This document shows positions 48,958 to 63,114 of a stretch of 64,000 nucleotides of DNA, in pieces. The notes below the pieces were generated by a model. That model made no database searches and was not told the DNA's origin. It saw nothing but the letters and a program-made list of their open reading frames with translations. Every line of letters starts with the position of its first letter. Position 1 is the first letter of the stretch. Source of the stretch: a virus; IMG/VR virus record IMGVR_UViG_3300046328_000506, positions 32,001 to 96,000 of that record. One strand, 5' to 3'. The position numbers and the translations under genes were made by a program.

Positions 48958-51693
48958 TTATTCACAACTAATACAATGCGCAAATTTACGACTAAACTCA
49001 GAAGCAGATGAAATGTTATGCTGATAATACAAAGTCTTAACTCCCATATCGTGTGCAAGTAACATTAATCTATTTACTTCTTTTGCTGTAGTATCTGCTG
49101 TAATAAATAAGTTTAATGATTGTGATTGGTCAATATACTTTTGCCTATGTGCTGCTTGTATAATTATTTCTTCTTGACTAATCTCTCGTGATGTTTTAAA
49201 TACTAACTTCTCATCATCTGTAAGGAAATCTAAATGTAACACACTTCCCTTTTCTTTCATTATACTATTCCATACTTCATCGGTATTTTTACCTTTTTTA
49301 ATTAATAAGTTTTGTAAGTAGGGATTTTTAATTACAAACTTTCCTTTTGCTAAATCTTTAATATAATAGTTACTATCGTAAGGTTCTATACTTTGACTTA
49401 CTTGTCCTAAAATAAACGCACTACTTGTTGTGGGGGCAATTGCTTGTAGTGTAGTATTTCTTCTACCTGTTCCTTTTGTCCATTCACATTCACCAAACAT
49501 TACAGCTAACTTTTTAGACGCTTTTAAGGCTTGTGATTGAATTGTTTTTTGTATTGATACATTATGTAGTCTTGCTTCCAACGATTCAAATGGTATCATC
49601 TTAGATTGTAAATAAGAGTGATAACCTAACCTGCCAATACCTAATGCTCTATGATTCTTAGCAAAGTTTACTGTCTTTTCCATGAACTTTATCTTAGATG
49701 CCTTATTTATAAACTCTGTCATTACAGCATCCAATAAAAACGTAACTACTTCTACACAATCTGTATCTTTCCACTCTTCATAATACAAATCATTTAAGGA
49801 AGCTAAATCACACACAAAAGATTCTTCAGTATTTACTGGCAAACAAACTTCAGAACAATTAGATGTGATAACACTATTACAAATCCAAAGATGCTCATTT
49901 GAATTCACTGTCGTACAATACACATCTTCATTACCAACATATTCTATAGATTTTATTTTATACGATTTTTTACAGTTACTCCTATATTCTCTATCTTCAA
50001 TAATAATATTTTTTCGTGATAAAAATCCTGTGTATTTTTCTAATTCTAATGCTGCATTTTTATCTCCAAAATATAATCTCCAACAATCCTTTGTTTCATA
50101 ATATTTATGACCACCATTTCCGTCTGGTAACAATGTTTCGCCAGCTTTTCTCATTATTGCTATCTTTGCATTTAAACCGAGATTGTTAAATAGTATTTGT
50201 AATTCTTCTAAAAACTCTCGATTAATGTTTGATAGTGATACTTGAAGTGCTTGATTACTTTCTTGTAATCCGACTGTGCCATCAGCATATAATAATCCCC
50301 TTATATATTGCCATTGAGTTAATTCGTCAGATTCCCAAATCCATTGTGGCACATATCCTTTTTCAAAATTTAATGCTTTTTTTAAACTTTTACTTGTTAA
50401 TCTTTTCTTTTTAACAGTAGAATGATAAACTGCACAATCTGCAAATTTTGCAATTTCATAAACTCTATTGTTTACTCCAATATTTGATTTATATTTGTTA
50501 GTAATATTAGTAAAACATGTTTCAATTTCTGGTATTAAATCAAAATCGTTTTCCCACACATCTAACATAACAGAGTCTTTATGCTGAGTTCCATCTGCTT
50601 GATATAGTCCTAATAAAAACGCCTCTTCTTGCATTGAATTTTTGCCAAAAATACCTTTGTTTGTTTGAGTGCAAACTTTATCATCAACTTTTAAATCTTT
50701 ACATTCAACCATGCCATACTTATTGTCTCCATAATAAACTTTTACTTTGTGATAAGAAGTAACTGTGTGAGTAATTCCATTCTCCAAAGTTAATTTATAC
50801 ACAGGAGCATCTTTCTCAATTAATCTCATTGGGGAAGCAGTTACAATTTTTGTATTATCAAAAAGTGTTAATTCTTCACCTCTGTCATATAATTCTTTAA
50901 CAGTTAATAAGCCGTCTGAGGTTGGAACTCGTTCACTCCCTATTACACAAAGATTTGACGCTTTAATCAAGGATTTGTTCTTATAAACTTCTGGTGTAGA
51001 TTCTCCGTTATTTACATTATCTTTAAAAAATATGTAAGGTAAACCTGTTTCAAATCTTTTCTGAATTACTTTAGCCCAAAGATTTCTTTTTTCAGCATCA
51101 CCCTCTTTCATTTTTTTAATCCAATCAGAAGAAATACATACTCCCCAAGTTAATTGTTGTATTGGATTACCTTCTTTTCTTATGCCCAACCACTCCTCTA
51201 TATCTGGATGTGTAATGTCTTGGTAAACAGCAAGATAACCCCTTCTTGATGAGCCTTGAGAAATCGTATTACTTACACTTTGGAATAGTTCTAAGAAACT
51301 AAATGTACCATTACTCTTACCATTGTTTGTAATAGCACTGCCTCTTGGTCTTACATCTCCAAAATAAGCTGATGTACCACCGCCAAGTTTACTCATCATA
51401 CCTATTTCTGCTGATGTTGATAAAATATCTTCTACTGTATCGTTTACATAACTTGAAAAGCAAGAGATTGGTAAACCTCTGTCTGTGCCAAAGTTAGTCC
51501 AAATAGGTGTAGATAAACTTATCCAACCATTAGCTATGTATTGTTGTAGTTTTATAGAGAAACCTTCTATCCCTAATATCTTTTCAGCATTATCCCCAAC
51601 TATTTTTATTCTTTCTTCTACTGTTTGATTTGGTAGTAAATAATCTTTTGATAGAAACTCCTTAGAGTAGTCTGTAAGCCATCTTATAGTCAT
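48958..51693 (-). CDS. nrdA: Class I ribonucleotide reductase alpha subunit, intein-containing, no ATP cone
   Basis: GLPISCF, SQGSSRRG, SNL|CSE, AIAPTTSS, IDQSQSLN, KTLYY, C-terminal CISCE. Confidence 0.95.
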   Translation of the reverse strand: MTIRWLTDYSKEFLSKDYLLPNQTVEERIKIVGDNAEKILGIEGFSIKLQQYIANGWISLSTPIWTNFGTDRGLPISCFSSYVNDTVEDILSTSAEIGMMSKLGGGTSAYFGDVRPRGSAITNNGKSNGTFSFLELFQSVSNTISQGSSRRGYLAVYQDITHPDIEEWLGIRKEGNPIQQLTWGVCISSDWIKKMKEGDAEKRNLWAKVIQKRFETGLPYIFFKDNVNNGESTPEVYKNKSLIKASNLCVIGSERVPTSDGLLTVKELYDRGEELTLFDNTKIVTASPMRLIEKDAPVYKLTLENGITHTVTSYHKVKVYYGDNKYGMVECKDLKVDDKVCTQTNKGIFGKNSMQEEAFLLGLYQADGTQHKDSVMLDVWENDFDLIPEIETCFTNITNKYKSNIGVNNRVYEIAKFADCAVYHSTVKKKRLTSKSLKKALNFEKGYVPQWIWESDELTQWQYIRGLLYADGTVGLQESNQALQVSLSNINREFLEELQILFNNLGLNAKIAIMRKAGETLLPDGNGGHKYYETKDCWRLYFGDKNAALELEKYTGFLSRKNIIIEDREYRSNCKKSYKIKSIEYVGNEDVYCTTVNSNEHLWICNSVITSNCSEVCLPVNTEESFVCDLASLNDLYYEEWKDTDCVEVVTFLLDAVMTEFINKASKIKFMEKTVNFAKNHRALGIGRLGYHSYLQSKMIPFESLEARLHNVSIQKTIQSQALKASKKLAVMFGECEWTKGTGRRNTTLQAIAPTTSSAFILGQVSQSIEPYDSNYYIKDLAKGKFVIKNPYLQNLLIKKGKNTDEVWNSIMKEKGSVLHLDFLTDDEKLVFKTSREISQEEIIIQAAHRQKYIDQSQSLNLFITADTTAKEVNRLMLLAHDMGVKTLYYQHNISSASEFSRKFAHCISCE
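49858..50949 (-). mobile_element. Intein (364 aa) with LAGLIDADG homing endonuclease in nrdA
   Basis: Begins CVIGSERV, ends VYCTTV...ITSN before the catalytic Cys; LLGLYQADG and IRGLLYADG motifs. Confidence 0.92.
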
Positions 51694-51715
51694 TGGTTTT
51701 ATCTATTATAGGTTG

Positions 51716-53665
51716 TTAAAATAAATCGTCTGAAGTAATGCTTTGTGCTTTCTTAGTGTAATTTGTAGGTACTTTATTGAAAAAGTCTGTATGTGTATTA
51801 GATAAGGTTTCTACATCAAACCATGCTACTTGTTTTAATAGTTCTGTATTAACATAGTATATCTTATTAGCGCCTATCATTTCTAATGACTTGTTAAATC
51901 TATCTTTTAAAAATTCTATAACTACATTTTTAGGTAAGAAATCTATTTCTCCATTTTGGAATATCCAATCTACTATTTTTTCTTCTGCTGAAAATGCTTT
52001 TTTACAAGCTCTTGTAATTGTGTCGTAAAACTCTTGTGTAAATATTTCTGGGCATTGCTTTTTAACTAAACTAATGATATAAGCCCCAGCTTTGGCATGG
52101 AGGTCTTCCTCTGACCTTGTAGCTTGTATTACATTATCAATACCTTTAAATAAATTCTTTTCTTTGTTGAATGATTTAATAATGAGGAACTGAGAAAACA
52201 AAGATACATTCTCTATAAATAAACTAAATAGAGTAAGGGTTAGTATGTATTGTTCTTTGTTATTTGAGCTTGCGTTTTTTAAATATTTTTCTAAATAATC
52301 TATTCTCCCTTGTATAACAGGTTCTTCTATTAGTTTTTCAAACGCTTCATTTAAACCTAATAATTCTAAAAGATTAGCATAAGCTCTTAGATGACGAATT
52401 TCCGAGTTACCCCCAATAAACGTACAATTATTATATCTTGTTACAATTGCACCAGATGGTACAGTTACACAATATATATTTCCTGTGTAATTTTCTATTG
52501 TTTCTTTAAGTGCGCTAAATGCTACTTTTTCTCTGTTAGCAATAAATGAAACAATATAAACATCGTTAAATGTTTCTTTTCTGGAATCTTTATGTATTCC
52601 CATATTAGCTTTATATCCAGCCAATGTTCCTATCATTTGTACAATATCAGCGTTTGTTTTGTCTGTGGTAGAATATTTTATCTTACAATCTTTTTTGTGT
52701 GGTAATCTTGTGCCATCCCAGTAAGACAATTCTTCAACAAAATCTTTACACCATAAATGAGATTGTTTATCAATTACAACCCAATTAAATTGCTTGTAAT
52801 TAAATTCTGTATCCATATCAATTTCAACTTTAATGTAACCTGTTTTTGTCACATTAAACGTTCTATATGTTACATCGCAATCTTTTAATATTTCAAAAAG
52901 CCTTTCTTTTTTACGTTCTTTCTTAACACTTATTTCATAAGTATGACAATTAGAACTTGTGCCCCTATGCCTTTTTTCTCCACTTTTTAATCTTCTCCAA
53001 CGAATTGAACCATCTGCTTGTATCGCAATTTTTAATCTTTCTAATGATGTTAGTTTATGAATTTCACCATTAATAATACCTGCTTCTGGTAAAAAATTAT
53101 TACTATTTTTTACACCAAGTTCTTTAATACTTTTTGATGTGTAGTTTCCTTTTGAATCAAAATACACGATTCTATGATTTGGTGTGATTTGTACATCAAT
53201 ACCTTTTTTGTGAAGTTTGTGAATTTCTCCAGAGTAATGTTCTTTAATAGTCCTAAGTGCTGGTGTAAAATTAATCTTACAATCTTCAGTATACTGTGCT
53301 ACTAAATCACCAACATTTATTTTTTCAAAATTTACCCATCCATTTGGTGTTAGTATTTCAGTGCCTTCAATATGACACTCACCGAAGCTAACACCCAGCA
53401 TATCAAATTCTGGTTTGGGGAATTGATTATACAAGTTACTCCAAAACCTTTTTACATTTACTTCTATTTGTGATATTGCAAGCATTGCATTTGTTACAGC
53501 ACTTCGTTCTACGACACTCAAATTTGCTTTGAAGTCTTGTATATCACTGTTATAATTGAACTCGCTATGAAGCCAATAGCTATGGTTTATAGCATCTACA
53601 AAATCTATTAACTCTGGGTACTCGTAAGGTTTTAACGTAGTTCTTTTTTCAAATATATTTGGCAT
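51716..53665 (-). CDS. nrdB: Class I ribonucleotide reductase beta subunit, intein-containing
   Basis: KPYEYP, SQIE, SEIRH..AY, IENVSLFSQF, EEDLH, DFF. Confidence 0.95.
   Translation of the reverse strand: MPNIFEKRTTLKPYEYPELIDFVDAINHSYWLHSEFNYNSDIQDFKANLSVVERSAVTNAMLAISQIEVNVKRFWSNLYNQFPKPEFDMLGVSFGECHIEGTEILTPNGWVNFEKINVGDLVAQYTEDCKINFTPALRTIKEHYSGEIHKLHKKGIDVQITPNHRIVYFDSKGNYTSKSIKELGVKNSNNFLPEAGIINGEIHKLTSLERLKIAIQADGSIRWRRLKSGEKRHRGTSSNCHTYEISVKKERKKERLFEILKDCDVTYRTFNVTKTGYIKVEIDMDTEFNYKQFNWVVIDKQSHLWCKDFVEELSYWDGTRLPHKKDCKIKYSTTDKTNADIVQMIGTLAGYKANMGIHKDSRKETFNDVYIVSFIANREKVAFSALKETIENYTGNIYCVTVPSGAIVTRYNNCTFIGGNSEIRHLRAYANLLELLGLNEAFEKLIEEPVIQGRIDYLEKYLKNASSNNKEQYILTLTLFSLFIENVSLFSQFLIIKSFNKEKNLFKGIDNVIQATRSEEDLHAKAGAYIISLVKKQCPEIFTQEFYDTITRACKKAFSAEEKIVDWIFQNGEIDFLPKNVVIEFLKDRFNKSLEMIGANKIYYVNTELLKQVAWFDVETLSNTHTDFFNKVPTNYTKKAQSITSDDLF
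52406..53377 (-). mobile_element. Intein (324 aa) with LAGLIDADG-like endonuclease in nrdB
   Basis: Begins CHIEGTEILT, block B TPNH, ends IYCVTVPSG...GGN before Ser; IAIQADG and LSYWDG motifs. Confidence 0.9.
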
Positions 53666-54154: not shown

Positions 54155-54901
54155 ATGGAAACTTTAAAGACATTCAATATAAGTGAATATCCTTGTTTTG
54201 TAAAACGAGATGTGTTGAGAAAAGAAATAGAAGCATTAGGTATTAATGTAAATTGTGTATATGATATGTATGTATCAGAAGTACAAACTTATAAACATGG
54301 AAAGTATGTTTTTGTTTGGAGAACTTCTGGAGTACAAGATTTAATGGGAGATAACATAAAAGATTTAACGGAAAAACAAAAAGAGGATTTAGTGTACTTA
54401 GCTGCAAATGATAATTCTTTTATTTATAATGTGTTTGTTATCCCAATATCTATATTTGACAAAACTCCGTATATTGGCTTTCCTGCTGATACATATTCTG
54501 GTGATGTTATATCTAAATTAAAATGGATTATTGGGGAATTAAAAAAAGATGCCGAACAATACATTGATAGGTTTTTATCTTATAATGAGTACATTATTCG
54601 TCTGAGTATTGACTGGTATGATGGAAATGATGCTGAATATGAGTTTTTATTCAAACAAAATTTGCAAAATGAGTTATTTTACATTACCAATATCACAGGT
54701 AGAGGAGATACTTATAGATTTGGTATTGATAATAAGATTAGTAAATTAATAAGCGAAAATTTTAAAAGTATTATAGACAACTTTAAACTTACCTCTTATA
54801 CAAGAAATGAAAGTAGGGATAGAGAAAAAGAAGTTAATGGCGAGAAAATTCTCCATAAATGTTACGAAACTGATTATATAATTAAATTACCAATAAACTA
54901 A
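54155..54901 (+). CDS. Hypothetical protein
   Basis: 248-aa ORF with promoter. Confidence 0.7.
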   Translation: METLKTFNISEYPCFVKRDVLRKEIEALGINVNCVYDMYVSEVQTYKHGKYVFVWRTSGVQDLMGDNIKDLTEKQKEDLVYLAANDNSFIYNVFVIPISIFDKTPYIGFPADTYSGDVISKLKWIIGELKKDAEQYIDRFLSYNEYIIRLSIDWYDGNDAEYEFLFKQNLQNELFYITNITGRGDTYRFGIDNKISKLISENFKSIIDNFKLTSYTRNESRDREKEVNGEKILHKCYETDYIIKLPIN

Positions 54902-55001
54902 ATTTAACCTCCCTATAAAAACATGAGTACAATTATTATTATTTTTGCTCTTTTAGTTGTAATTAATTATGGTGTAAATATTTACATGAATAAAAAATCA
55001 A

Positions 55002-55268
55002 ATGAGACTAATTAATCTTTCATCAATACCTAAGTTTGGAGAATTATCTACTGAGGAAGCTATTGATTATTGCTTAGATAATGATATAGATACAATACGT
55101 GATAACTTCTCAGATTATAAAATAGAATATACTTTATCTGATTTAATTGTAATACCTGAATATAAAACTAAAACTATTTGGGAGAACATTAGGGATAGGG
55201 GAATTGAATATTTAGAAAGACAAGAGTTAAAAATTAAGATAAACTATTACCCAAAAGAATTTGAATAA
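55002..55268 (+). CDS. Hypothetical protein
   Basis: 88-aa ORF in plus-strand operon. Confidence 0.55.
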   Translation: MRLINLSSIPKFGELSTEEAIDYCLDNDIDTIRDNFSDYKIEYTLSDLIVIPEYKTKTIWENIRDRGIEYLERQELKIKINYYPKEFE

Positions 55269-55512
55269 AAATATGAAAACATATAAGTTGAGAAAATACA
55301 ATCCAAGTGGTCTTTTTGAAATCACAGAAAAAGATTACACTAAATTGAAAGGGGTTATTTTTTCAGAAGAAACAGATTCTATTGATATATTAAAATGCAC
55401 AGATACAAAAAGTGGTAACGAAGTGTATTTAAAAAATCTTTCTGTAAAAAATAATATTGCACAATTAGGGGCAAAAGGATATTTACCAAAAGTTATAGAT
55501 TTTAATAAATAA
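55261..55512 (+). CDS. Hypothetical protein
   Basis: 83-aa ORF; start possibly the internal ATG. Confidence 0.55.
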   Translation: MNKNMKTYKLRKYNPSGLFEITEKDYTKLKGVIFSEETDSIDILKCTDTKSGNEVYLKNLSVKNNIAQLGAKGYLPKVIDFNK

Positions 55513-55650
55513 TGAAACTTAAAATAGAAATACCACCTAATCAAGCTAACGCCTCATGCCCTAATAAAAATGAATGTAAAATAATTAGGATACCAAATGG
55601 TGATAGTGAAAGTTTAATGTGTAAGAACTGTAATAAAAAAGTAAATTAAA

Positions 55651-55956
55651 ATGAAGAAACTTGTATATGGAACACCTATGATAGATATATCTGACTTAGA
55701 ACAAGTAAAAGAAGAATCTACTAATAAAGTATTTAATGAAATAAAAATTAATCACTCAGAATTTATACAACAAACTTATAGTGAATCAATGACAGATTCT
55801 TCAAAAGTTAAAGTAATGACCTCTGTTTGTCTACTAACATCAAGAGAATTTGTTACACTAAATAAAATAATAGAAAAGTTAGAATCTGAGGATTATAGTA
55901 AAGGTGAAATAATTGAACAATTAAGAAAATTAACAACAGAAACTATTTATTTATGA
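55651..55956 (+). CDS. Hypothetical protein
   Basis: 101-aa ORF. Confidence 0.6.
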   Translation: MKKLVYGTPMIDISDLEQVKEESTNKVFNEIKINHSEFIQQTYSESMTDSSKVKVMTSVCLLTSREFVTLNKIIEKLESEDYSKGEIIEQLRKLTTETIYL

Positions 55957-56267
55957 AACTAACAATTGATACAAAACTAAAACAAATAATGATAGAAGAT
56001 TCTGTTAGTATTAACGAACTAAATTCTTTTATAGTAAAGAATGGTTATAATGATTATACAATAGTTTCAAAAGAAAAAATAGAAGCAGATAAATTAAGGG
56101 AATGGTTTAATCAACCAAGAGATTATATTACAACAAACAATCTCCCAACTTTTAATCCTACATATTATGGCGGTAATGATGCACTTGATAATAGTAAATC
56201 AATGATAGGTAAGGTTACAACAAATGGTAGTATGTCTTTTGGTAACTTCTCTAAAAACGCTTTGTAA
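55953..56267 (+). CDS. Hypothetical protein
   Basis: 104-aa ORF, ATGA-coupled. Confidence 0.6.
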   Translation: MKLTIDTKLKQIMIEDSVSINELNSFIVKNGYNDYTIVSKEKIEADKLREWFNQPRDYITTNNLPTFNPTYYGGNDALDNSKSMIGKVTTNGSMSFGNFSKNAL

Positions 56268-56610
56268 TATGATAATAAATAAAATGTTAATGTATAATGC
56301 AGTAATTTGTAATAAATTACCGTTTGATTTTTTTAAGGATGTTGAGTGTGATTTTTCTACTGTTGATGGTAATAGAAAAATATTTTATGTAAAGAGGGCA
56401 TTGGGGGAAATTTTAAAAATAGATGTTACAGACTATAGTGTTAGCATTTATTATTCAAAAGTTTTAGAACGTGATGGAAATAGTAGTATTGCAAAAACAA
56501 TAGAGGAGAGTTTTACTTATGGCTCTAAAAATACCAATGAGCATTTTGATATATGGTGTAATCGTATTATTAATTCTGTAAGCACAATTCAAGAGAAAAT
56601 GTTTGTATAA
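56224..56610 (+). CDS. Hypothetical protein
   Basis: ORF; true start probably downstream (MIINK). Confidence 0.55.
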   Translation: MVVCLLVTSLKTLCNMIINKMLMYNAVICNKLPFDFFKDVECDFSTVDGNRKIFYVKRALGEILKIDVTDYSVSIYYSKVLERDGNSSIAKTIEESFTYGSKNTNEHFDIWCNRIINSVSTIQEKMFV

Positions 56611-56675
56611 AAACTTTTATATTTCAATTATAAGCTAAGATAATTTTAAACCTATATTGTATCAACTTAAAAAAG

Positions 56676-56719
56676 AAAGTGCCTTAAAACTCAATTGTGA
56701 AAGTTTTAAGGCACTTTTT
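56676..56719. terminator. Bidirectional intrinsic terminator
   Basis: AAAGTGCCTTAAAACT / AGTTTTAAGGCACTTT between convergent gene blocks. Confidence 0.8.
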
Positions 56720-56910
56720 ATTTGCTTGGTATTTACTTTTTAATTTTATTAATATCATTTGTATCAACTTCTCTGTAACTAACATTCTCAAACTTTTTTG
56801 GAGAAGCTAATATGTTATCAAGTTCTTGTTTTGTAAGGATTTCCATTACAGTATTAGAACTGTACACATCTAAATAATTAACTAAGTATTTTTTCATGTT
56901 CTCTAATTGT

Positions 56911-57141
56911 TTAAATTAAACTTGGTTTATAATCTACTCTTTTTCTATTATCTATTGGTATCACTTTGTAAAAGCCTTCAATTAATATATTGTGGGTTTC
57001 AAAATTCTTAATCATGTTTTCTAATCTTTCTCCAACATTTTCTCCAAAACAAGTGTAGTTCATATCTTCTGATATTAACTCTGCTCAATTAGAAGGTAAG
57101 TGAAAATAGATTATACAATCTTTATGTATTTTTGGTTTCAT
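56911..57141 (-). pseudogene. 76-codon ORF with one in-frame TGA (pseudogene or read-through gene)
   Basis: MKPKIHKDCIIYFHLPSN-TGA-AELISEDMNY...KPSLI; ATG lies 1 nt after the stop of the upstream gene. Confidence 0.55.
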
Positions 57142-57142
57142 T

Positions 57143-57343
57143 TTATTCTTCAATTAAATCTTCATAATTAACTATTAACTCTTTCAACTGCTCTTCTGTT
57201 AAACCTCTTTCTCTAAAACCTTCTAACATAGCTTTATTACAAAGTATTTTTGGGGAAGGAAGTTCTGGCGAAGTCTCTATCTTTTTATATAGACTTGCAA
57301 ATGCTTCCTTTAATGCTTTTTCTGATAATTCAAAGTTACTCAT
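57143..57343 (-). CDS. Hypothetical protein
   Basis: 66-aa ORF. Confidence 0.6.
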   Translation of the reverse strand: MSNFELSEKALKEAFASLYKKIETSPELPSPKILCNKAMLEGFRERGLTEEQLKELIVNYEDLIEE

Positions 57344-57453
57344 TTTATTTTTGTTATACTAACTTTTTGTACTGTGCAAATAATTATGCTATTTTCTTGT
57401 GTGGCTACGTTAAGGTATTTTTGGTACAGTGTGCGGTGGAGGAAACCATCTTG

Positions 57454-57966
57454 TTAATTTTCATACCCCTGCCTATACACTACATTGTTTGGAAATTTAG
57501 TTACCCTATTCCCTTGAAAAAAGAAATCTGGGTTTGTCCAGTATATCCCTTTAACTACTGATTGTTGTATTATACAATACCTTGTTAATTCTTTTATCGC
57601 ATTATGATATGTAGAGAGAGATTTAATTAAATTCTCATCCATATATCTTTTTGTATTTATCCACACAAAATCTTTATTTGAGTCTGCTTCATATATTAAC
57701 CACAAATATAACCTTTGTGATTTGTCAGATAGCCCATTTATAATTTGTCTGTGAATAGCTTTTGTATAAACTTTTGTAAATGGAGTATATTCCATCTCCA
57801 ATTGCTTGTTTATCAAATCCCCATCCTTGTCTTTATGATAAGTATCTTTCTGGGTAAACGTAGATACTGGTATTTGTAACCCACATACAAAAGGATTAAT
57901 ACCTAAATCCTTTTCTTCAAATAATGGTTTGTATACTCTTGATGATTCTTTCTTTCTCGCAGCCAT
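57454..57966 (-). CDS. RepL-like replication/HTH protein (copy 2)
   Basis: Colinear paralogue of 10118..10645 (FTKVY, YHNAIKEL, GIYWTNPDFFFQGNR). Confidence 0.75.
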   Translation of the reverse strand: MAARKKESSRVYKPLFEEKDLGINPFVCGLQIPVSTFTQKDTYHKDKDGDLINKQLEMEYTPFTKVYTKAIHRQIINGLSDKSQRLYLWLIYEADSNKDFVWINTKRYMDENLIKSLSTYHNAIKELTRYCIIQQSVVKGIYWTNPDFFFQGNRVTKFPNNVVYRQGYEN

Positions 57967-57985
57967 TGATTGTTCTAATTATTTA

Positions 57986-58017
57986 CAAAGATACGAAGAA
58001 TTTATTATAAATACAAA
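57986..58017 (-). promoter_or_regulatory. Bacteroidota sigma-A promoter
   Basis: TTTG-N20-TATCTTTG upstream of repL-like copy 2. Confidence 0.78.
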
Positions 58018-58713
58018 TAATTGTACTAATTATGTTTATTTGTATAATGTTTTTATTCTTGTAATATACAGTACAAAAAATTACTATGATAAAAATGATA
58101 TAACTTATTGATTGTTAGAGCTTTACAAGGATATTATGACAAACTCGTTTTAGCAGTAATATTAATTACTTTGTACCAAATCCAAGTATAGTTAAATAGT
58201 GGTATAACTACTGTGATACTCAATGAGTTACAGTGATTTTCTCTATGTAAAAAATTGTACTACTATTTTTATACCCCTCCCCCTTTTGAATTTAATATCT
58301 TTAACCGTTATAAATTTTTACACAGTACCTATATTAGTAATGATACCCCCTCACTTTTTAATGGGATTATAGTTTCTGATAATAAAATTGTATGTGTGTG
58401 TTCTAAGGGTGATACCATCTCATAATTGACCCTCCATCAAGAGCGTATTAGAAAATAGAATTGATATACTGTTTCCTATTGGGAACAGTCTATTGATTTT
58501 ATAAAAAAGAATAGCTTTACAGTAATGTAAAGTAACAGAATCAATTAAGCGGTGTTAGTTGCTTAATCTATTCTTATTCTAATGTGCATAGTAAGGCGTT
58601 ATCTTGCAAGGCTTAACACACTTGTAAGATATTAGGATAAGAATAAAAGGGTATCCCTTTTTTCTCTTTGCAGTGTTAAATAGTTTCCTTACAACTATTG
58701 CAAAGTTTTTTAA

Positions 58714-58786
58714 CTTGTATATGACAGATGCCTTTACGTGGCATACAAGATAAGTAATTACGAAAGTAATGAAACTAAATCTGTCA
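58714..58786 (+). ncRNA. HDV-like self-cleaving ribozyme candidate
   Basis: P1 CTTGTAT/ATACAAG, P2 TGACAGAT/ATCTGTCA, P3 GCC/GGC with 7-nt L3 TTTACGT, P4 ATTAC-GAAA-GTAAT, J4/2 ...ACTAA; the helices occur in the nested double-pseudoknot order. Confidence 0.7.
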
Positions 58787-58953
58787 AAATTGGATTATTC
58801 CAATAGAGTTTAAGTCTTAACACGTTGTTTTGTCTTAACTTTGTTGTACTATTCTAATAACAGTTGTGTATGTTTTCTTTAATAGCATACAAAGGTTAAA
58901 TTGTGATATACCTATTAATCTACTCACACAAAAATACCATACCATTTATTTAT

Positions 58954-59433
58954 ATGAAATCATTAACAGAATTATTAGCAGAATTAGCAGCAGCACCAGC
59001 AAACAAAAAAGCAGCAATTCAGTTACAAATTGATGCCAAAAAAGCAAGTAGAACTAATAGCTTAACTGCCTATGCAGAAAAATATGTAACAAGTTCCTTG
59101 TTTTATGGTTCAAAAGAAGAGCAGGCAATTAATATGCAGGTTGTTTTCAATGATGATGATACTGTAAAAACAAAAGAAGTGCAGGCATCAGGCAACAAAA
59201 AAACACAACGTATCATTGCAATTAACATTGATACGGAAAAGGAAATCACTTTGCCGTCGTTATCTGAATTGAAAAAATTTAGCGGTGAATCTGAAAACTT
59301 TTGGAATCATTGCAATTATGGGCAACCGTTTGCTTTAAAGTTTACTACTATCAAAAGTGGTGAAGAGAATCCGTTGACTTCAGAAACCTATACAAGACCC
59401 ACTTTTGCTGTTAGTGAAATTACGTCTATGTAG
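58954..59433 (+). CDS. Hypothetical protein, probably highly expressed
   Basis: ATG at 58954 (MKSLTELLAELAAAPANKK); followed by a terminator. Confidence 0.7.
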   Translation: MKSLTELLAELAAAPANKKAAIQLQIDAKKASRTNSLTAYAEKYVTSSLFYGSKEEQAINMQVVFNDDDTVKTKEVQASGNKKTQRIIAINIDTEKEITLPSLSELKKFSGESENFWNHCNYGQPFALKFTTIKSGEENPLTSETYTRPTFAVSEITSM

Positions 59434-59441
59434 TAAGTCTT

Positions 59442-59486
59442 ATACATACCTTGTATATTTCTATATATAAGGTATGTATTTTTTTT
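59442..59486 (+). terminator. Intrinsic terminator
   Basis: ATACATACCTT / AAGGTATGTAT stem plus T-run. Confidence 0.7.
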
Positions 59487-59519
59487 AATTGATTTTTTCA
59501 CACTTTAATTTTTACTTTT

Positions 59520-59705
59520 ATGAAGTGTACTATTTTATTTTTTGCAGGTATTGACAAAGAAACAAGGGAATATACCAAAGAATCTTATGTTTGTGATTTT
59601 CCTTTAAAATTTGGATTTGGTTCTTTTAACGAGGATAGCATTATTAAAAATATACCTAAAAAGATATTTGTCAAAGATATTATATCTATTGACTTAATAG
59701 ATTAA
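59520..59705 (+). CDS. Small hypothetical protein
   Basis: 61-aa ORF. Confidence 0.5.
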   Translation: MKCTILFFAGIDKETREYTKESYVCDFPLKFGFGSFNEDSIIKNIPKKIFVKDIISIDLID

Positions 59706-59964
59706 TAAAGAATATTGAGAATGTTAGAGTTCTCTATTCTTTTAAAATATAAAATACCTTGACTCAGTCATTTCAAACATTTTTACTATTCAACAGTAAA
59801 ACGTGTAAGAAAATATAACGGTGTCGTCATAGGTGTTTGTGTCTATTTTTAGTCTACTCTAACAAATAATTTAGGCTTGTCTAAACTTTTGTTTTGGTTT
59901 ATCTAATCTTTTTCTTATTAAATACCTTGACACAGGGAAATCTCACATTTAATCATTTAAAAAC

Positions 59965-60171
59965 ATGTTAGTTATATATAGAGGAATACTTTCTTTTGCT
60001 GATTTAAGAGAATTAAGCAAAGAGTCTGACATCTCCAACAGACAATACTTGATAAAAGTAATTGGGGAAACTATGGAAACATTTTTTGTTACCAAAGAAG
60101 ATTACGAATCATTTCGTAGTGGACTCTCTACATCTGATAGAGGTACATATTGGTTTGAGATGGGATATTAG
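59965..60171 (+). CDS. Small hypothetical protein
   Basis: 68-aa ORF with AT-rich leader. Confidence 0.55.
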   Translation: MLVIYRGILSFADLRELSKESDISNRQYLIKVIGETMETFFVTKEDYESFRSGLSTSDRGTYWFEMGY

Positions 60172-60193
60172 TTTAGGTGTTCTTAAAACACCT

Positions 60194-60295
60194 CTGTCGT
60201 TTATATGCACTATGGAGTATCTTACTAACGTAAGATACGTGTATAAACCTGATGAAATAAGTATCTAACGACACTTAGGGGATAACCCGAAACAG
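60194..60295 (+). ncRNA. Type III hammerhead-like ribozyme with insertion
   Basis: Stem III CTGT/ACAG, GTC cleavage triplet, 10-bp stem I, CTGATGA core, GGG-ATAA-CCC stem II, GAAAC; 23-nt insert between A9 and G10.1. Confidence 0.6.
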
Positions 60296-60349
60296 TAACC
60301 ATAAATTTTCTTAATTTTACATTTTCAAATACTAAATAATATAAATATC

Positions 60350-60562
60350 ATGGAAGAAACATTAGTAATAAATGGTATAACTTATGGAGAAGTTGTATCG
60401 GAGTTTACAGCGTTAAGCAAATATACTGGCGAATCAATTTCTGTTGAAGGTGTTGAATTTAATCAGTACGAAAATGGGAAAATTGAAACTCCTATTGGCT
60501 ACGACACTATTGATGGTGAAGATTGCACTATTTGGGGTAGTCGTTATCCTGTATCATTGTAA
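60350..60562 (+). CDS. Small acidic hypothetical protein
   Basis: 70-aa ORF. Confidence 0.6.
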   Translation: MEETLVINGITYGEVVSEFTALSKYTGESISVEGVEFNQYENGKIETPIGYDTIDGEDCTIWGSRYPVSL

Positions 60563-60586
60563 AGGCAAATTTTAACTTAGAAAAAT

Positions 60587-60799
60587 ATGACACAAGAAGT
60601 ATTTATTGACGAACAAGGGAATGTGATTCTTAATAGAGAAACATTTGAACCAAAGCCAAACGAGAAATTTGGCAATCCATATCGTGAAAATGGGGAATTG
60701 CACGTATCTTTTACTTTTGAAGGAGGGCATGATTATCCTATGTTTTATTCTTCAATAGAAGAGCTTAGTGCCATCAAACAATGGTATTGGGAAAGCTAA
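60587..60799 (+). CDS. Small acidic hypothetical protein
   Basis: 70-aa ORF. Confidence 0.6.
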   Translation: MTQEVFIDEQGNVILNRETFEPKPNEKFGNPYRENGELHVSFTFEGGHDYPMFYSSIEELSAIKQWYWES

Positions 60800-60862
60800 A
60801 TAAAACTTAAACTTGCAAATTTATATTAGATTATTCTTCTTTTAGAACTATCTATTGTATAT

Positions 60863-61162
60863 TTGCAAGTTGATTTTAACTTAAAAGACGAACTCGTTAC
60901 GTCATTAAAGAAGCGAGATAAAATGCCATTATTTTCAAGCCAAGTAATTGGCTATTTTAACAATGAGTACGGGAGTGCTTATTGTGATATTTACTGCTCA
61001 GATAATTTGTCAGAGCAACAAATGGAAGAGATTCATCAGAATCATCTTCAAAACGGTGATGTGTATCGCCAATGTACTTTTATGAGTCTTGTAGAGGCTC
61101 GTAAAATGTGGAAAGAAAATCCACAGTACATAGAACTATTTGAATCCTTTTGGGAAAAATAG
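60863..61162 (+). CDS. Hypothetical protein
   Basis: ORF; start uncertain (internal MPLFS possible). Confidence 0.55.
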   Translation: MQVDFNLKDELVTSLKKRDKMPLFSSQVIGYFNNEYGSAYCDIYCSDNLSEQQMEEIHQNHLQNGDVYRQCTFMSLVEARKMWKENPQYIELFESFWEK

Positions 61163-61590
61163 TGTACACTGATAGGGGAAATAAACTCCTTAATCAATAG
61201 TAGAGTTGGGTAATCGCATGATTATTTAAACTATTGAGGATTGAACAACAATTCTATTTTTTGTATGTTTTTAAAAACATAATCCTGTTTGAGCAGGGAT
61301 ACCATAGAGTATCAAAGGTGATTAGGCTCAAATTTCGTCACAGTGCCAGTTGAGAAGGTTCTTAATCAACCTTCTCAAGAAATCGTGTGTCATCACACGG
61401 AAGATTGGGGAAACCCATTAGGAGGAGTGGAACCTTGTGATGAGCAAGGAAACTCTATAACAACTCCATTGATAGATGAAAATCTTCTGTGGATAGTTGT
61501 AGAAGACTAATAATCTTCTAACGTAAGACGACCACGAAACGGTTGAAAGAGTAGTAACTCTCCTGAATAAAAGCAGGGTATAGTAAAAAA

Positions 61591-61790
61591 GATTTCATAG
61601 CTCAATTGGTCAGAGCATTTTAAAATAAACAACAGCTTTTTTTATAAGTGAAGATAGTAACTTATAATTTAAACGTAGTTGTTGAAGTGATTAAAAGATA
61701 ATAAAAGCCCAGCAGAATGGGAAGAAACGAAAACTTTTAATCAGTTGTTTATTTTTAAAAAGGTTTCAGGTTCAAGTCCTGATGATTTCA
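61591..61790 (+). ncRNA. tRNA-like RNA with the anticodon loop replaced by a 133-nt insert
   Basis: D-arm GCTC-AATTGGTCA-GAGC, T-arm TCAGG-TTCAAGT-CCTGA, variable loop AGGTT, acceptor GATTTCA/TGATTTC (two U-U mismatches), anticodon stem TTTTA/TAAAA. Confidence 0.7.
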
Positions 61791-62526
61791 CGAACTCGAA
61801 TATATTGTTAATGGCATCTGGACTCCGAAGTAGGCTATGTTGTGAGACATAGAAAAAAAGGGCTAACAGAAATAATGTTCTAACAATACAACGAAGCATC
61901 TGTGTAGAAGTACAATACATAGGTAATCATAGCTTCCATATAACCGTTTTAAAGTGTGTTGGGTTATAGAATACTAATAGACTATACAATGTCTATTGAA
62001 TATCGGCTCGAAAGAGACCATATAAAGTTTGAAGTAAAAGTTTCGTTGGCTCAAATGAATACTGCTAAGAGTTGAAAACGCAGAGACGAAACAATATTTT
62101 ATTTCAAATGGTGGCAGCAGTCAGAAATGATTGCCTCAATTATATTATTACAACAACCTTATGTTAAGTTAAAAGGTAAAAGACGGTTCAGGTTTAAACC
62201 GATACCTTGTTGTAATAAGATAAAAGAGTAGTAACTGTTAGTAATAACAGACTTCATCAGACGTGATGACTTGGAGAGCAAACTAAGGTTCGTGTATCTC
62301 TTTACGTTGTGCAGACCCGAAAGGGTAATAAACAAATGGTCAATAATAAGGGAAATTTCTCTTTAAAGTAAAATTATGTAAAGTAATATATGTGTTGTTA
62401 TAGCAACAGTGAGTAATCACAAACATATATGAAATCATAAGCTGCTATAACAGAACTTTAAATAGAAAAGGAGTATCGAATACTTCATTGACCGCATTTT
62501 TTTAAATTAATTAAAACTCATATACG

Positions 62527-63114
62527 ATGAAAACTACTCTTTTCGTGGCATTTAGCCACACTCTTACTCAAAGCCAAATTGACGGCTTTCAAAGTCAATT
62601 TTCTACTCAAACTGTTATCAGAGAATTTTCTGATAATGGTGGTATTCCCACTGGTGACGGTGGAGAAGCGTTTACTGAATTTGTTGATTTCAGTATTGTA
62701 AGTCTTGGTGAAGTTGCACCAGAATTACAAGCTCAAATGAGCCAAATTCCTGCAAGAGCTACTTTACAAGAAGTTCAAGAGCTTGCGAAAAGCATTGTAG
62801 CTGAAGCAATCAAAGCTGGTGCAACACATTTTTTCTGTGTTGGTGAACCTACTCTTACAATGTGGGCTAACTTATTGATAGAAAGAAAGATGGTGTCAGC
62901 AAGACTCACTTACTATGTGTCAGAAGATGGTACAGAAGTAGGGTGGGGTAAAACTTCATCTGTTTTTGTAGAGGATAGATACAAAGTCGAACATCCTCAA
63001 ATTACTTGTATTCAATCAACCACTGAACGTCAATCAGTTGAGGAAACTCAACCTGACGGAAGTGTTTTAAAAAAGGCTATCTTCAACCACGTAATGTGGC
63101 GAGAAATGTTTTAG
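62527..63114 (+). CDS. Csx20-like CARF-related protein (candidate cA4 ring nuclease / anti-CRISPR)
   Basis: LFVAFSHTLTQSQ...LQAQMSQIP...VGEPTL...STTERQSVEE.QPDGSV.K..IF.HV.WRE matches my recollection of the Csx20 pattern FSHxLT..Q / WSNIP / QGDF / TTxR.S.E..DG..K.F.HV.FR. Confidence 0.7.
   Translation: MKTTLFVAFSHTLTQSQIDGFQSQFSTQTVIREFSDNGGIPTGDGGEAFTEFVDFSIVSLGEVAPELQAQMSQIPARATLQEVQELAKSIVAEAIKAGATHFFCVGEPTLTMWANLLIERKMVSARLTYYVSEDGTEVGWGKTSSVFVEDRYKVEHPQITCIQSTTERQSVEETQPDGSVLKKAIFNHVMWREMF

Follow-up and report, generated by a model that had tools for sequence, protein, structure and literature searches.

Results

A hepatitis delta virus-like ribozyme in a crAss-like phage

The stretch of DNA analyzed here (the window) comprises 64,000 nucleotides (nt) from an uncultured crAss-like phage, bases 32001-96000 of a 130-kb IMG/VR record (IMGVR_UViG_3300046328_000506) that is 76% complete according to CheckV. 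On its plus strand, positions 58714-58786 form a 73-nt intergenic element that, at the level of sequence, is confirmed as a genuine member of the hepatitis delta virus (HDV) ribozyme family by its fold, its membership in a wider set of relatives and the covariation within that set. We consider it likely that the element is a self-cleaving ribozyme of the HDV class with a variant build, in which a C-G pair occupies the cut site, P1.1 consists of U-A and U.U and the base of P4 is loop-E-like, and that it cuts one transcript. Cleavage and its site are features that we infer from the relatives of the element only. As far as sequence can establish the identification, comparative evidence carries it, and not structure.

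The helices are arranged in the order P1-P2-P3-L3-P3'-P1'-P1.1-P4-J4/2-P2', which is the nested double pseudoknot of HDV-type ribozymes. An earlier reading of the letters alone (the original prediction) had proposed an HDV-like fold on the plus strand, and every helix it placed was confirmed; all 23 of the 23 pairs are Watson-Crick (7 in P1, 8 in P2, 3 in P3 and 5 in P4). With the ribozyme numbered so that position n equals 58713 + n, its parts are as follows.

58713..58714 (+): predicted scissile bond, between A58713 (-1) and C58714 (+1), at the 5' end of P1
58714..58720 (+): P1 5' strand, CUUGUAU; seven Watson-Crick pairs with 58743-58749
A58721 (+): J1/2, a single nt between P1 and P2
58722..58729 (+): P2 5' strand, UGACAGAU; eight Watson-Crick pairs with 58779-58786
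58730-32 / 58740-42 (+): P3, GCC/GGC, enclosing L3; P2 abuts P3 (J2/3 = 0)
58733-39 (+): L3, UUUACGU; U58733 = U20, U58734 = U21, U58735 = U22, G58738 = G25
58743..58749 (+): P1 3' strand, AUACAAG; its G58749 is the cut-site partner of C58714
58750..58751 (+): P1.1 partners; A58750-U58735 is Watson-Crick, U58751 lies opposite U58734 (U.U)
58752..58774 (+): P4 domain, 23 nt; AAGUA at 58752-56, stem, GAAA loop, then GAAA at 58771-74
58757-61 / 58766-70 (+): P4 stem, AUUAC/GUAAU, 5 base pairs (bp); GAAA loop at 58762-65
58775..58778 (+): J4/2, CUAA, a CNRA sequence directly before the P2 3' strand; C58775 = position 62
58779..58786 (+): P2 3' strand, AUCUGUCA; 3' end of the ribozyme

The U20.G25 combination of the metal site is present, with U58733 first and G58738 sixth in L3. 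C58775, which opens CUAA immediately before P2', is the predicted general-acid cytosine. When folding was limited to nested pairs, P2, P3 and P4 were recovered and the crossing P1 was missed.

A family of phage relatives

A covariance model built from nine other phages, with the window left out (R2), matches 58714-58785 over its full length with 65.8 bits and an expectation (E) value of about 2e-11 under a rough calibration; the runner-up in the 64-kb window reached 20.9 bits and was without P3/L3. A second model (R1), covering P1, P3 and three P4 pairs and built from 10 seeds, returned 71 matches in 86 sources and detected the ribozyme as a single copy in the 130,171-base genome. The ribozyme was likewise the sole site in the genome for a descriptor of the theta-type core (RCY-T-NN-NCGY-RGY, CNRA). 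By blastn, positions 58400-59500 had no match among 50,697 phage records. The 73-nt element used as a query found one real relative among phage records (cr118_1), together with 13 further records whose short matches we take as chance.

Two pattern scans of IMG/VR yielded a family of 61 distinct sequences. The first scan fixed a 13-mer core and CTAA, left P1, P2 and the P4 region free, and returned 93 loci, in 54 of which a strict parser recognized P1 and P2 helices of 5-8 bp each, with differing sequences. Nearly all of these 54 carry ATAAGTA, a hairpin and GAAA, and most of the others lack both the fold and the motif. Because the parser overlooked members in which J1/2 or P4 is long, the 39/93 loci that it scored as having no fold include 12 that the model regained. 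ATAAGTA and GAAA recur in this set though the pattern had left both free; the exceptions are L021, L053 and L061 (all ATCA[AG]TA), L005 and the P4-less L071. The second scan fixed ACGTGGC, AAGTA and GAAACTAA and placed no constraint on the first three bases of L3 or on the two that follow P1'. It returned 81 loci; of their 51 unique sequences, one is a chance match. At the six P3/L3 bases that this pattern left unfixed, 50/51 unique matches read GCC followed by [TC]T[TCG]. Among 17 pattern loci presumed to be structureless, R1 found no match in 16; the one that it did match (L064) resembles a P4-less relative.

Covariation across the family is extensive. Over the 61 rows, 89.2% of the cells are paired, as compared with 57.7% after shuffling and 33-50% when partners were slid by 1-3 columns, and 20 of the 22 pairs show changes on both sides. 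P1 has both-side changes in 7/7 pairs and 98.5% of its cells paired; the first three P4 pairs are 95% paired, again with both sides changing, and P3 is nearly invariant, with one A-U swap. P2 lies outside the model, yet 78-86% of the cells pair at its inner four positions, each of which takes 4-6 pair types. Pairing stands at 64% in the outer part of this helix, to some extent owing to column drift where J1/2 differs in length.

The window carries the consensus base at 22/22 tabulated core positions. The J4/2 cytosine is found in 61/61 relatives, though CTAA was fixed in both patterns; in L3, U comes first in 60/61 (a position left free in the second scan) and G sixth in 61/61 (fixed by the pattern). 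J2/3 is zero in 43/44 of the unique sequences parsed. In contrast to this core, the flanks of 41 locus sources and the window form about 30 mutually dissimilar groups, with those of the window matching none, and the conserved unit is therefore the ribozyme itself.

Several points count against the identification or limit these figures. The pairing values for P1, P3 and P4 lean on the model's own fit, the search patterns imposed much of the conservation seen in the single-stranded core, and the family sequences share history. The fold alone is weak, not significant evidence. A structure-only descriptor (Watson-Crick P1 of 7, P2 of 7-8 and P3 of 3 pairs, L3 of 7 nt, no sequence constraint) has one site in the genome, which is the ribozyme; dinucleotide shuffles of the genome average 0.16 sites, with 14/100 holding at least one, and the fold by itself is therefore not convincing. 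A check with HDV covariance models had been proposed by the original prediction, and its outcome is divided: the published models failed to recognize the element, whereas R2 recognized it with the score given above. Specifically, the Rfam 15 HDV models gave no match on the window at gathering scores and no HDV match in 58500-59000 at E up to 10, the lone CPEB3 row being a 24-nt fragment on the opposite strand (58977-59000). This miss weighs little, because such models cannot hold pseudoknots. Rfam returned tRNAs only when it was run on 20 family loci.

Positive shuffles are also what might be expected if the element were merely a set of chance inverted repeats in AT-rich DNA, and its location in a 990-bp gap between divergent genes would suit nested operator palindromes acting at the DNA level in a divergent promoter region. 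We regard an origin of either kind as extremely improbable and close to refuted. It is at odds with the match to a model derived from other phages, with the asymmetry of the conserved single-stranded motifs (L3, AAGUA/GAAA and CUAA), with the G.U pairs of the relatives and with the lack of a model match at nearly all loci presumed structureless. Moreover, G.U at position 1, found in 31/61 members, fits an RNA encoded on this strand.

Cut-site pair, P1.1 and P4 base

The C at position 1 had been regarded as atypical, a view that the relatives do not bear out. Besides the G.U rows just mentioned, the first P1 pair is C-G in 20 of the 61, G-C in 5, A-U in 3, U-A in 1 and another combination in 1; three of the C-G rows reflect alignment ambiguity, giving C1-G in about 17-20/61 members. 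By our own count these occupy at least 12 unrelated contexts, one of which starts 1 nt after the 3' end of a tRNA-Leu. C1 is also present in fungal variants (PMC5640933) and in a C. briggsae ribozyme (PMC13635239). With C58714-G58749, the window departs from the R-Y pair, usually G.U, at the cut site.

P1.1 was originally drawn as U-A/U-G. Covariation instead gives U58735-A58750 over U58734.U58751, that is, one Watson-Crick pair and a U.U in place of two pairs. Although P1.1, like P2, was left out of the model, L3 position 3 and the first base after P1' form UA in 45 of the 61 rows, CG in 11, GC in 1 and another combination in 1, with gaps in 3. Within the second scan, TTT occurs with AT, TTC with GT (14 unique sequences) and CTG with CT, and at the second P1.1 position U stands opposite U throughout. 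An alternative register for the C1 members, with a 6-bp P1 and a G-A/U-U P1.1, was rejected: L174, in which CUG in L3 goes with CU after P1', is compatible with the 7-bp register alone.

At the base of P4, AAGUA...GAAA is conserved under a hairpin that covaries and is variable. We tentatively read this base as a loop-E-like AGUA/GAA motif, a naming that presumes AGUA/GAA to be the letters of the bulged-G motif. HDV variants carrying an E-loop in P4 have been described (PMC5640933, PMC13635239). The supposedly atypical C1 and P1.1 are family traits and already published.

The same traits could be taken as signs of a decayed, non-cleaving copy, inactivated by its C-G cut site and weak P1.1 and serving at most as a structured spacer or protein site. 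G.U or R-Y is indeed the general consensus at the cut site (PMC5640933), and P1.1 has one Watson-Crick pair. However, the helices are all perfect, the core agrees with the family consensus at every tabulated position, C1-G recurs in unrelated contexts that include the one 1 nt from tRNA-Leu, and ribozymes with these very traits cleave fast (PMC13635239, PMC5640933). Decay is in our view improbable.

Relationship to published ribozymes

In a collection of 230 fungal HDV variants, the cut site typically bears a C-G pair and part of P4 gives way to an E-loop; two of them were shown to cleave at the base of P1 (PMC5640933). C-G/E-loop variants are credited also to Weinberg et al. 2015 (per PMC5640933 and PMC13635239). 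The fungal variants of Li & Breaker 2017 resemble the window's ribozyme in having C-G at the cut, an otherwise canonical pseudoknot and, on our tentative reading of the window, a loop-E-type P4 base, in their varied gene associations and in cleavage at the base of P1, as predicted here (PMC5640933). They differ in an extra base between P2 and P3, whereas the ribozyme of the window has J2/3 = 0 and is phage-borne.

An 'Ackermannviridae' HDV ribozyme (isolate ctUKy2, BK037802.1) has been crystallized (Luo et al. 2026, PMC13635239). Its P1.1 consists of U:A over U21:U38, and its cleavage rate is 4.2 per min. The C57U and C58U mutants of that study lack activity, reflecting the established role of the J4/2 cytosine in HDV ribozymes, and a rate of 9.3 per min was measured for a C. 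briggsae ribozyme that has C1 (PMC13635239). Like the window's ribozyme, the 'Ackermannviridae' ribozyme is phage-borne, has a P4 and places the catalytic C in J4/2 (C58U is dead). Positions 21 and 38 of the window are U58734 and U58751, numbered as in the 'Ackermannviridae' U21:U38, and the catalytic C is C58 there versus C62 here, as would be expected if the P4 domain of the former were shorter by 4 nt. From the numbering and the make-up of P1.1 only, the two would appear to belong to the same sub-family.

Theta ribozymes (Kienbeck et al. 2024, PMC10879173) occur in gut Caudoviricetes and represent a minimal form of the HDV-like ribozyme; the original prediction had likened the element to this type. 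Their layout is P1, J, P2, RCC, T, CC, NCGY, GGY, P1', GG, L4, CNRA and P2' (Supplementary Data 2, PMC10879173). The window shares with them the core letters GCC-U-NN-ACGU-GGC, CUAA right before P2', a P1 of 6-7 bp and a P2 of 7-8 bp, occurrence in gut-type phages and a position away from tRNA, as in 42% of theta occurrences (PMC10879173). Its GCC-T-TT-ACGT-GGC and CTAA agree with the theta core consensus (RCC-T-NN-NCGY-GGY, CNRA(N)). Theta rows, by contrast, have G1, a two-pair P1.1 (CC/GG, TC/GA or GC/GC), an L4 of 5-8 nt and no P4 (PMC10879173), whereas the window has C1, U-A/U.U (TT/AT for CC/GG) and a 23-nt P4 domain. The L3 string of the window was absent from the five searched supplements of PMC10879173. 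Strict theta identity is ruled out by the presence of P4, with its loop-E-like base, by C1 in place of G1 and by the one-pair P1.1, and the minimal type named earlier does not apply.

In Faecalibacterium prausnitzii, an HDV-like ribozyme of canonical build lies upstream of glmM; it is bacterial and has been reported to respond to a metabolite. It resembles the window's element in its intergenic or 5' leader position in a bacterial-type operon, away from tRNA. It differs in the metabolite response, nothing similar being indicated for the window. The build described here is known already from fungi and another phage and is not a new kind of ribozyme.

Genomic context

The ribozyme sits in a 990-bp divergent gap between the start of a minus-strand open reading frame (ORF) at 57966 and a plus-strand ORF at 58954 (or 58903), and therefore a plus-strand transcript passing through it must start inside the gap. 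The original prediction had correctly described it as free of an adjoining tRNA. ARAGORN found no tRNA in the window, and the genome's two (Gln and Met, at 98796-99175 in genome coordinates) lie about 8 kb downstream and are without such a ribozyme. This absence had been thought unusual, but 526/1281 theta occurrences are isolated, without a tRNA, with 493 in non-coding DNA (PMC10879173). Isolated theta ribozymes lie in the same sense as their nearest gene in more than 96% of cases, and their function is stated to be unknown; in 58% of theta occurrences the cleavage site lies at most 5 nt from a tRNA 3' end (PMC10879173). The hairpins upstream and the ORF downstream that had also been predicted were both found, as listed here.

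58490..58713 (+): hairpin-rich non-coding stretch, 224 nt; the would-be upstream cleavage product
58645-58661 (+): terminator-like hairpin, then T-rich DNA (TTCTCTTTGC)
58666-58705 (+): terminator-like hairpin, then U6 and AA; ends 8 nt before the cut
58954..59433 (+): downstream ORF; 159 amino acids (aa) from ATG 58954, 176 aa from GTG 58903

The upstream stretch contains five hairpins, two of them terminator-like. Its minimum free energy (MFE) is -58.2 kcal/mol (z -4.84; 0/200 shuffles fold as well), and the last 150 nt before the cut reach z -6.07. Rfam 15 gave no match, to ROOL or any other family, on 57900-58720 at E up to 1, and nothing in the stretch resembles the flanking DNA of the other family members; it may encode a small RNA not yet catalogued. 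The downstream ORF, the first sizeable one on the plus strand, starts 167 nt (ATG) or 116 nt (GTG) past the ribozyme. It has no PHROG match, its protein has no relative in viral or metagenome contigs, and a 20-mer specific to the window had 0 matches in metagenome contigs.

Between the minus-strand ORF and the hairpin-rich stretch, positions 58223-58489 (+) hold a pair of small ORFs of 49 and 56 aa that overlap each other, and a terminator-like hairpin of 9 bp (58468-58489) comes after them. This segment may be a separate short transcription unit within the gap. A Bacteroidota-type -7 box at 57986-57993 (-) lies about 20 nt before the minus-strand ORF start. The -7 motif (TAnnTTTG) is not enriched in the window (131 found versus 117.7 expected), and we claim no promoter; a sigma-70 scan gave 1 site versus 4.0 expected, far from the ribozyme, and we claim no transcription start.

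Proposed mechanism and role

According to the mechanism that we propose, which is modelled on relatives that have been solved and assayed, the transcribed RNA would fold into the nested double pseudoknot, and the 2'-OH of A58713 would attack its own 3' phosphate to cut between 58713 and 58714. C58775 would act as general acid, and Mg2+ would serve as Lewis acid near the U58733.G58738 pair. The upstream piece would end in a 2',3'-cyclic phosphate just past the hairpin and U6AA, and the downstream piece, with a 5'-OH and the folded ribozyme at its front, would run toward ORF 58954. Cleavage would give the hairpin-rich upstream RNA a defined, hairpin-capped 3' end, uncoupled from the following mRNA. 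This role is close to the one suggested by the original prediction, which took the transcript to be an early one. Judging from context only, we see the chances that the ribozyme punctuates a transcript in this manner as roughly balanced.

The contexts of relatives offer some guidance. Five of 31 family contexts lie exactly at a tRNA 3' end, the first P1 base standing 0, -1, +1, 0 and 0 nt from the ARAGORN-defined end, and 0/31 fall inside a same-strand ORF. In 13/31, a same-strand ORF begins 18-55 nt past the ribozyme; for cr118_1, an annotated crAss-like phage, our own ORF call puts this distance at 30 nt. Among the 26 non-tRNA contexts, 19 have a stem-loop of at least 5 pairs ending 0-4 nt before the cut, compared with a mean of 12.2 and a maximum of 17 in 40 shuffles and with 8-16 in 11 shifted windows. 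Mean z over these 26 is -2.19 upstream and -0.93 downstream, versus -6.07 and -2.56 for the window. Both the MFE z and the hairpin-near-cut count are crude measures: tRNA-adjacent controls range in z from +0.5 to -4.3, and shuffles alone give 12/26.

We speculate, tentatively, that the arrangement could be a reusable phage 'hairpin + ribozyme' module that replaces a terminator, such that, through a cut just past a stable hairpin, the upstream RNA receives a protected 3' end and polymerase reads on into the next gene. The upstream RNA would then be a structured non-coding RNA of roughly at least 220 nt. We consider this less likely than not.

The ORFs that follow closely in 13 contexts, cr118_1 included, would suit an active ribozyme selected for its downstream product, which would trim the 5' leader of an early mRNA to leave a 5'-OH and a compact fold that alter stability or translation, with the upstream piece as waste. 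The shared sense of isolated theta ribozymes and their nearest genes (PMC10879173) points in the same direction. Yet the ORF of the window lies 116-167 nt away, beyond the 18-55 nt range; at tRNA 3' ends, it is clearly the upstream product that the ribozymes of the family serve; and the upstream flank is the more structured one, both on average and in the window. A downstream role seems rather unlikely to us.

The preferred account, in which the cut defines the 3' end of the upstream RNA, has difficulties of its own. The enrichment of hairpins before the cut is modest, and the window departs from both context patterns, its hairpin lying 8 nt before the cut, outside 0-4 nt, and its ORF well beyond the usual distance. 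The two terminator-like hairpins stand 8-52 nt upstream of the cut, and if termination at them were efficient, little transcript would reach the ribozyme. In addition, a Bacteroidota-type -7 box, TAACTTTG, at 58836-43 (+), located past the ribozyme and about 110 nt short of ATG 58954, could give that ORF a promoter of its own.

Distribution and other family loci

In a search of one genome per prokaryote species, the pattern occurred in 9 contigs and a full model match at two loci only, namely a Cloacimonadota metagenome-assembled genome (MAG) contig whose ribozyme is identical to that of the IMG/VR locus L007, and a 129-kb Parabacteroides goldsteinii contig. Phages are thus essentially the only carriers of the family, in line with PMC10879173.

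Several loci have arrangements of their own. L007 (585-658 and 757-828; the same DNA is found in L184) carries the series tRNA-Lys, ribozyme, tRNA-Ser, ribozyme, in which the 3' end of each tRNA marks the start of a ribozyme; the second ribozyme is distinguished by U1, the L3 string UCUACGU and a different P4 region. In L029, L035 and L077, on contigs of 64-152 kb and belonging to the commonest sub-group (P1 GGCAUC), a suppressor-type tRNA with anticodon CUA lies upstream, and ARAGORN placed no tRNA directly at the cut site. In L029, this tRNA precedes the ribozyme by 164 nt and a conserved hairpin ends 1 nt before the cut.

Long-P4 members occur on contigs labelled GVMAG (giant-virus MAGs), at L082 270-367 and 551-648, two copies about 280 nt apart, and at L109 293-385. 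Mis-binning of phage DNA may account for these contigs; alternatively, the family may not be confined to phages. L015 (57-124) and L016 (61-130) are accompanied about 500 nt away on the same strand by a second, differently built HDV-like ribozyme, with P1.1 CC/GG (L015) or CG/CC (L016) and a P4 hairpin without AAGUA/GAAA.

Gene content of the phage

A long minus-strand block of the window encodes the terminase, portal, major head protein and ribonucleotide reductase. The terminase shares about 26-27% identity with its counterparts in crAss-like, Bacteroides and Flavobacterium phages. From 54155 onward the ORFs are small and without PHROG match; a PHROG search with nine small plus-strand ORFs at 54155-63114, four of them downstream of the ribozyme, gave no match. 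In the ribonucleotide reductase region, 48958-53665 (-), PHROG profiles cover the large-subunit ORF (911 aa) at about 3-250 and 593-910 and leave some 340 aa in between unmatched, and the 649-aa ORF beside it is matched by both large- and small-subunit profiles. This pattern could reflect an insertion, an intein or a fusion.

Discussion

The element at 58714-58786 provides a well-supported phage example, with about 60 distinct relatives, of the HDV variant that combines C-G at the cut site, a U-A/U.U P1.1 and a loop-E-like P4 base. Since the published theta motif (G1, no P4) would overlook it, as Rfam 15 does, existing counts of HDV-like ribozymes in phages would appear to be too low. The window's copy is an ordinary member of its family and does not settle what phage ribozymes away from tRNAs do. 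Their job is described as an open question in PMC10879173, and the contexts collected for this family give a testable lead. If the hairpin and ribozyme do act together as a module, the early region of this phage would open with an uncatalogued structured non-coding RNA (58490-58713), and many orphan HDV-like ribozymes of phages would be makers of 3' ends for RNAs other than tRNAs.

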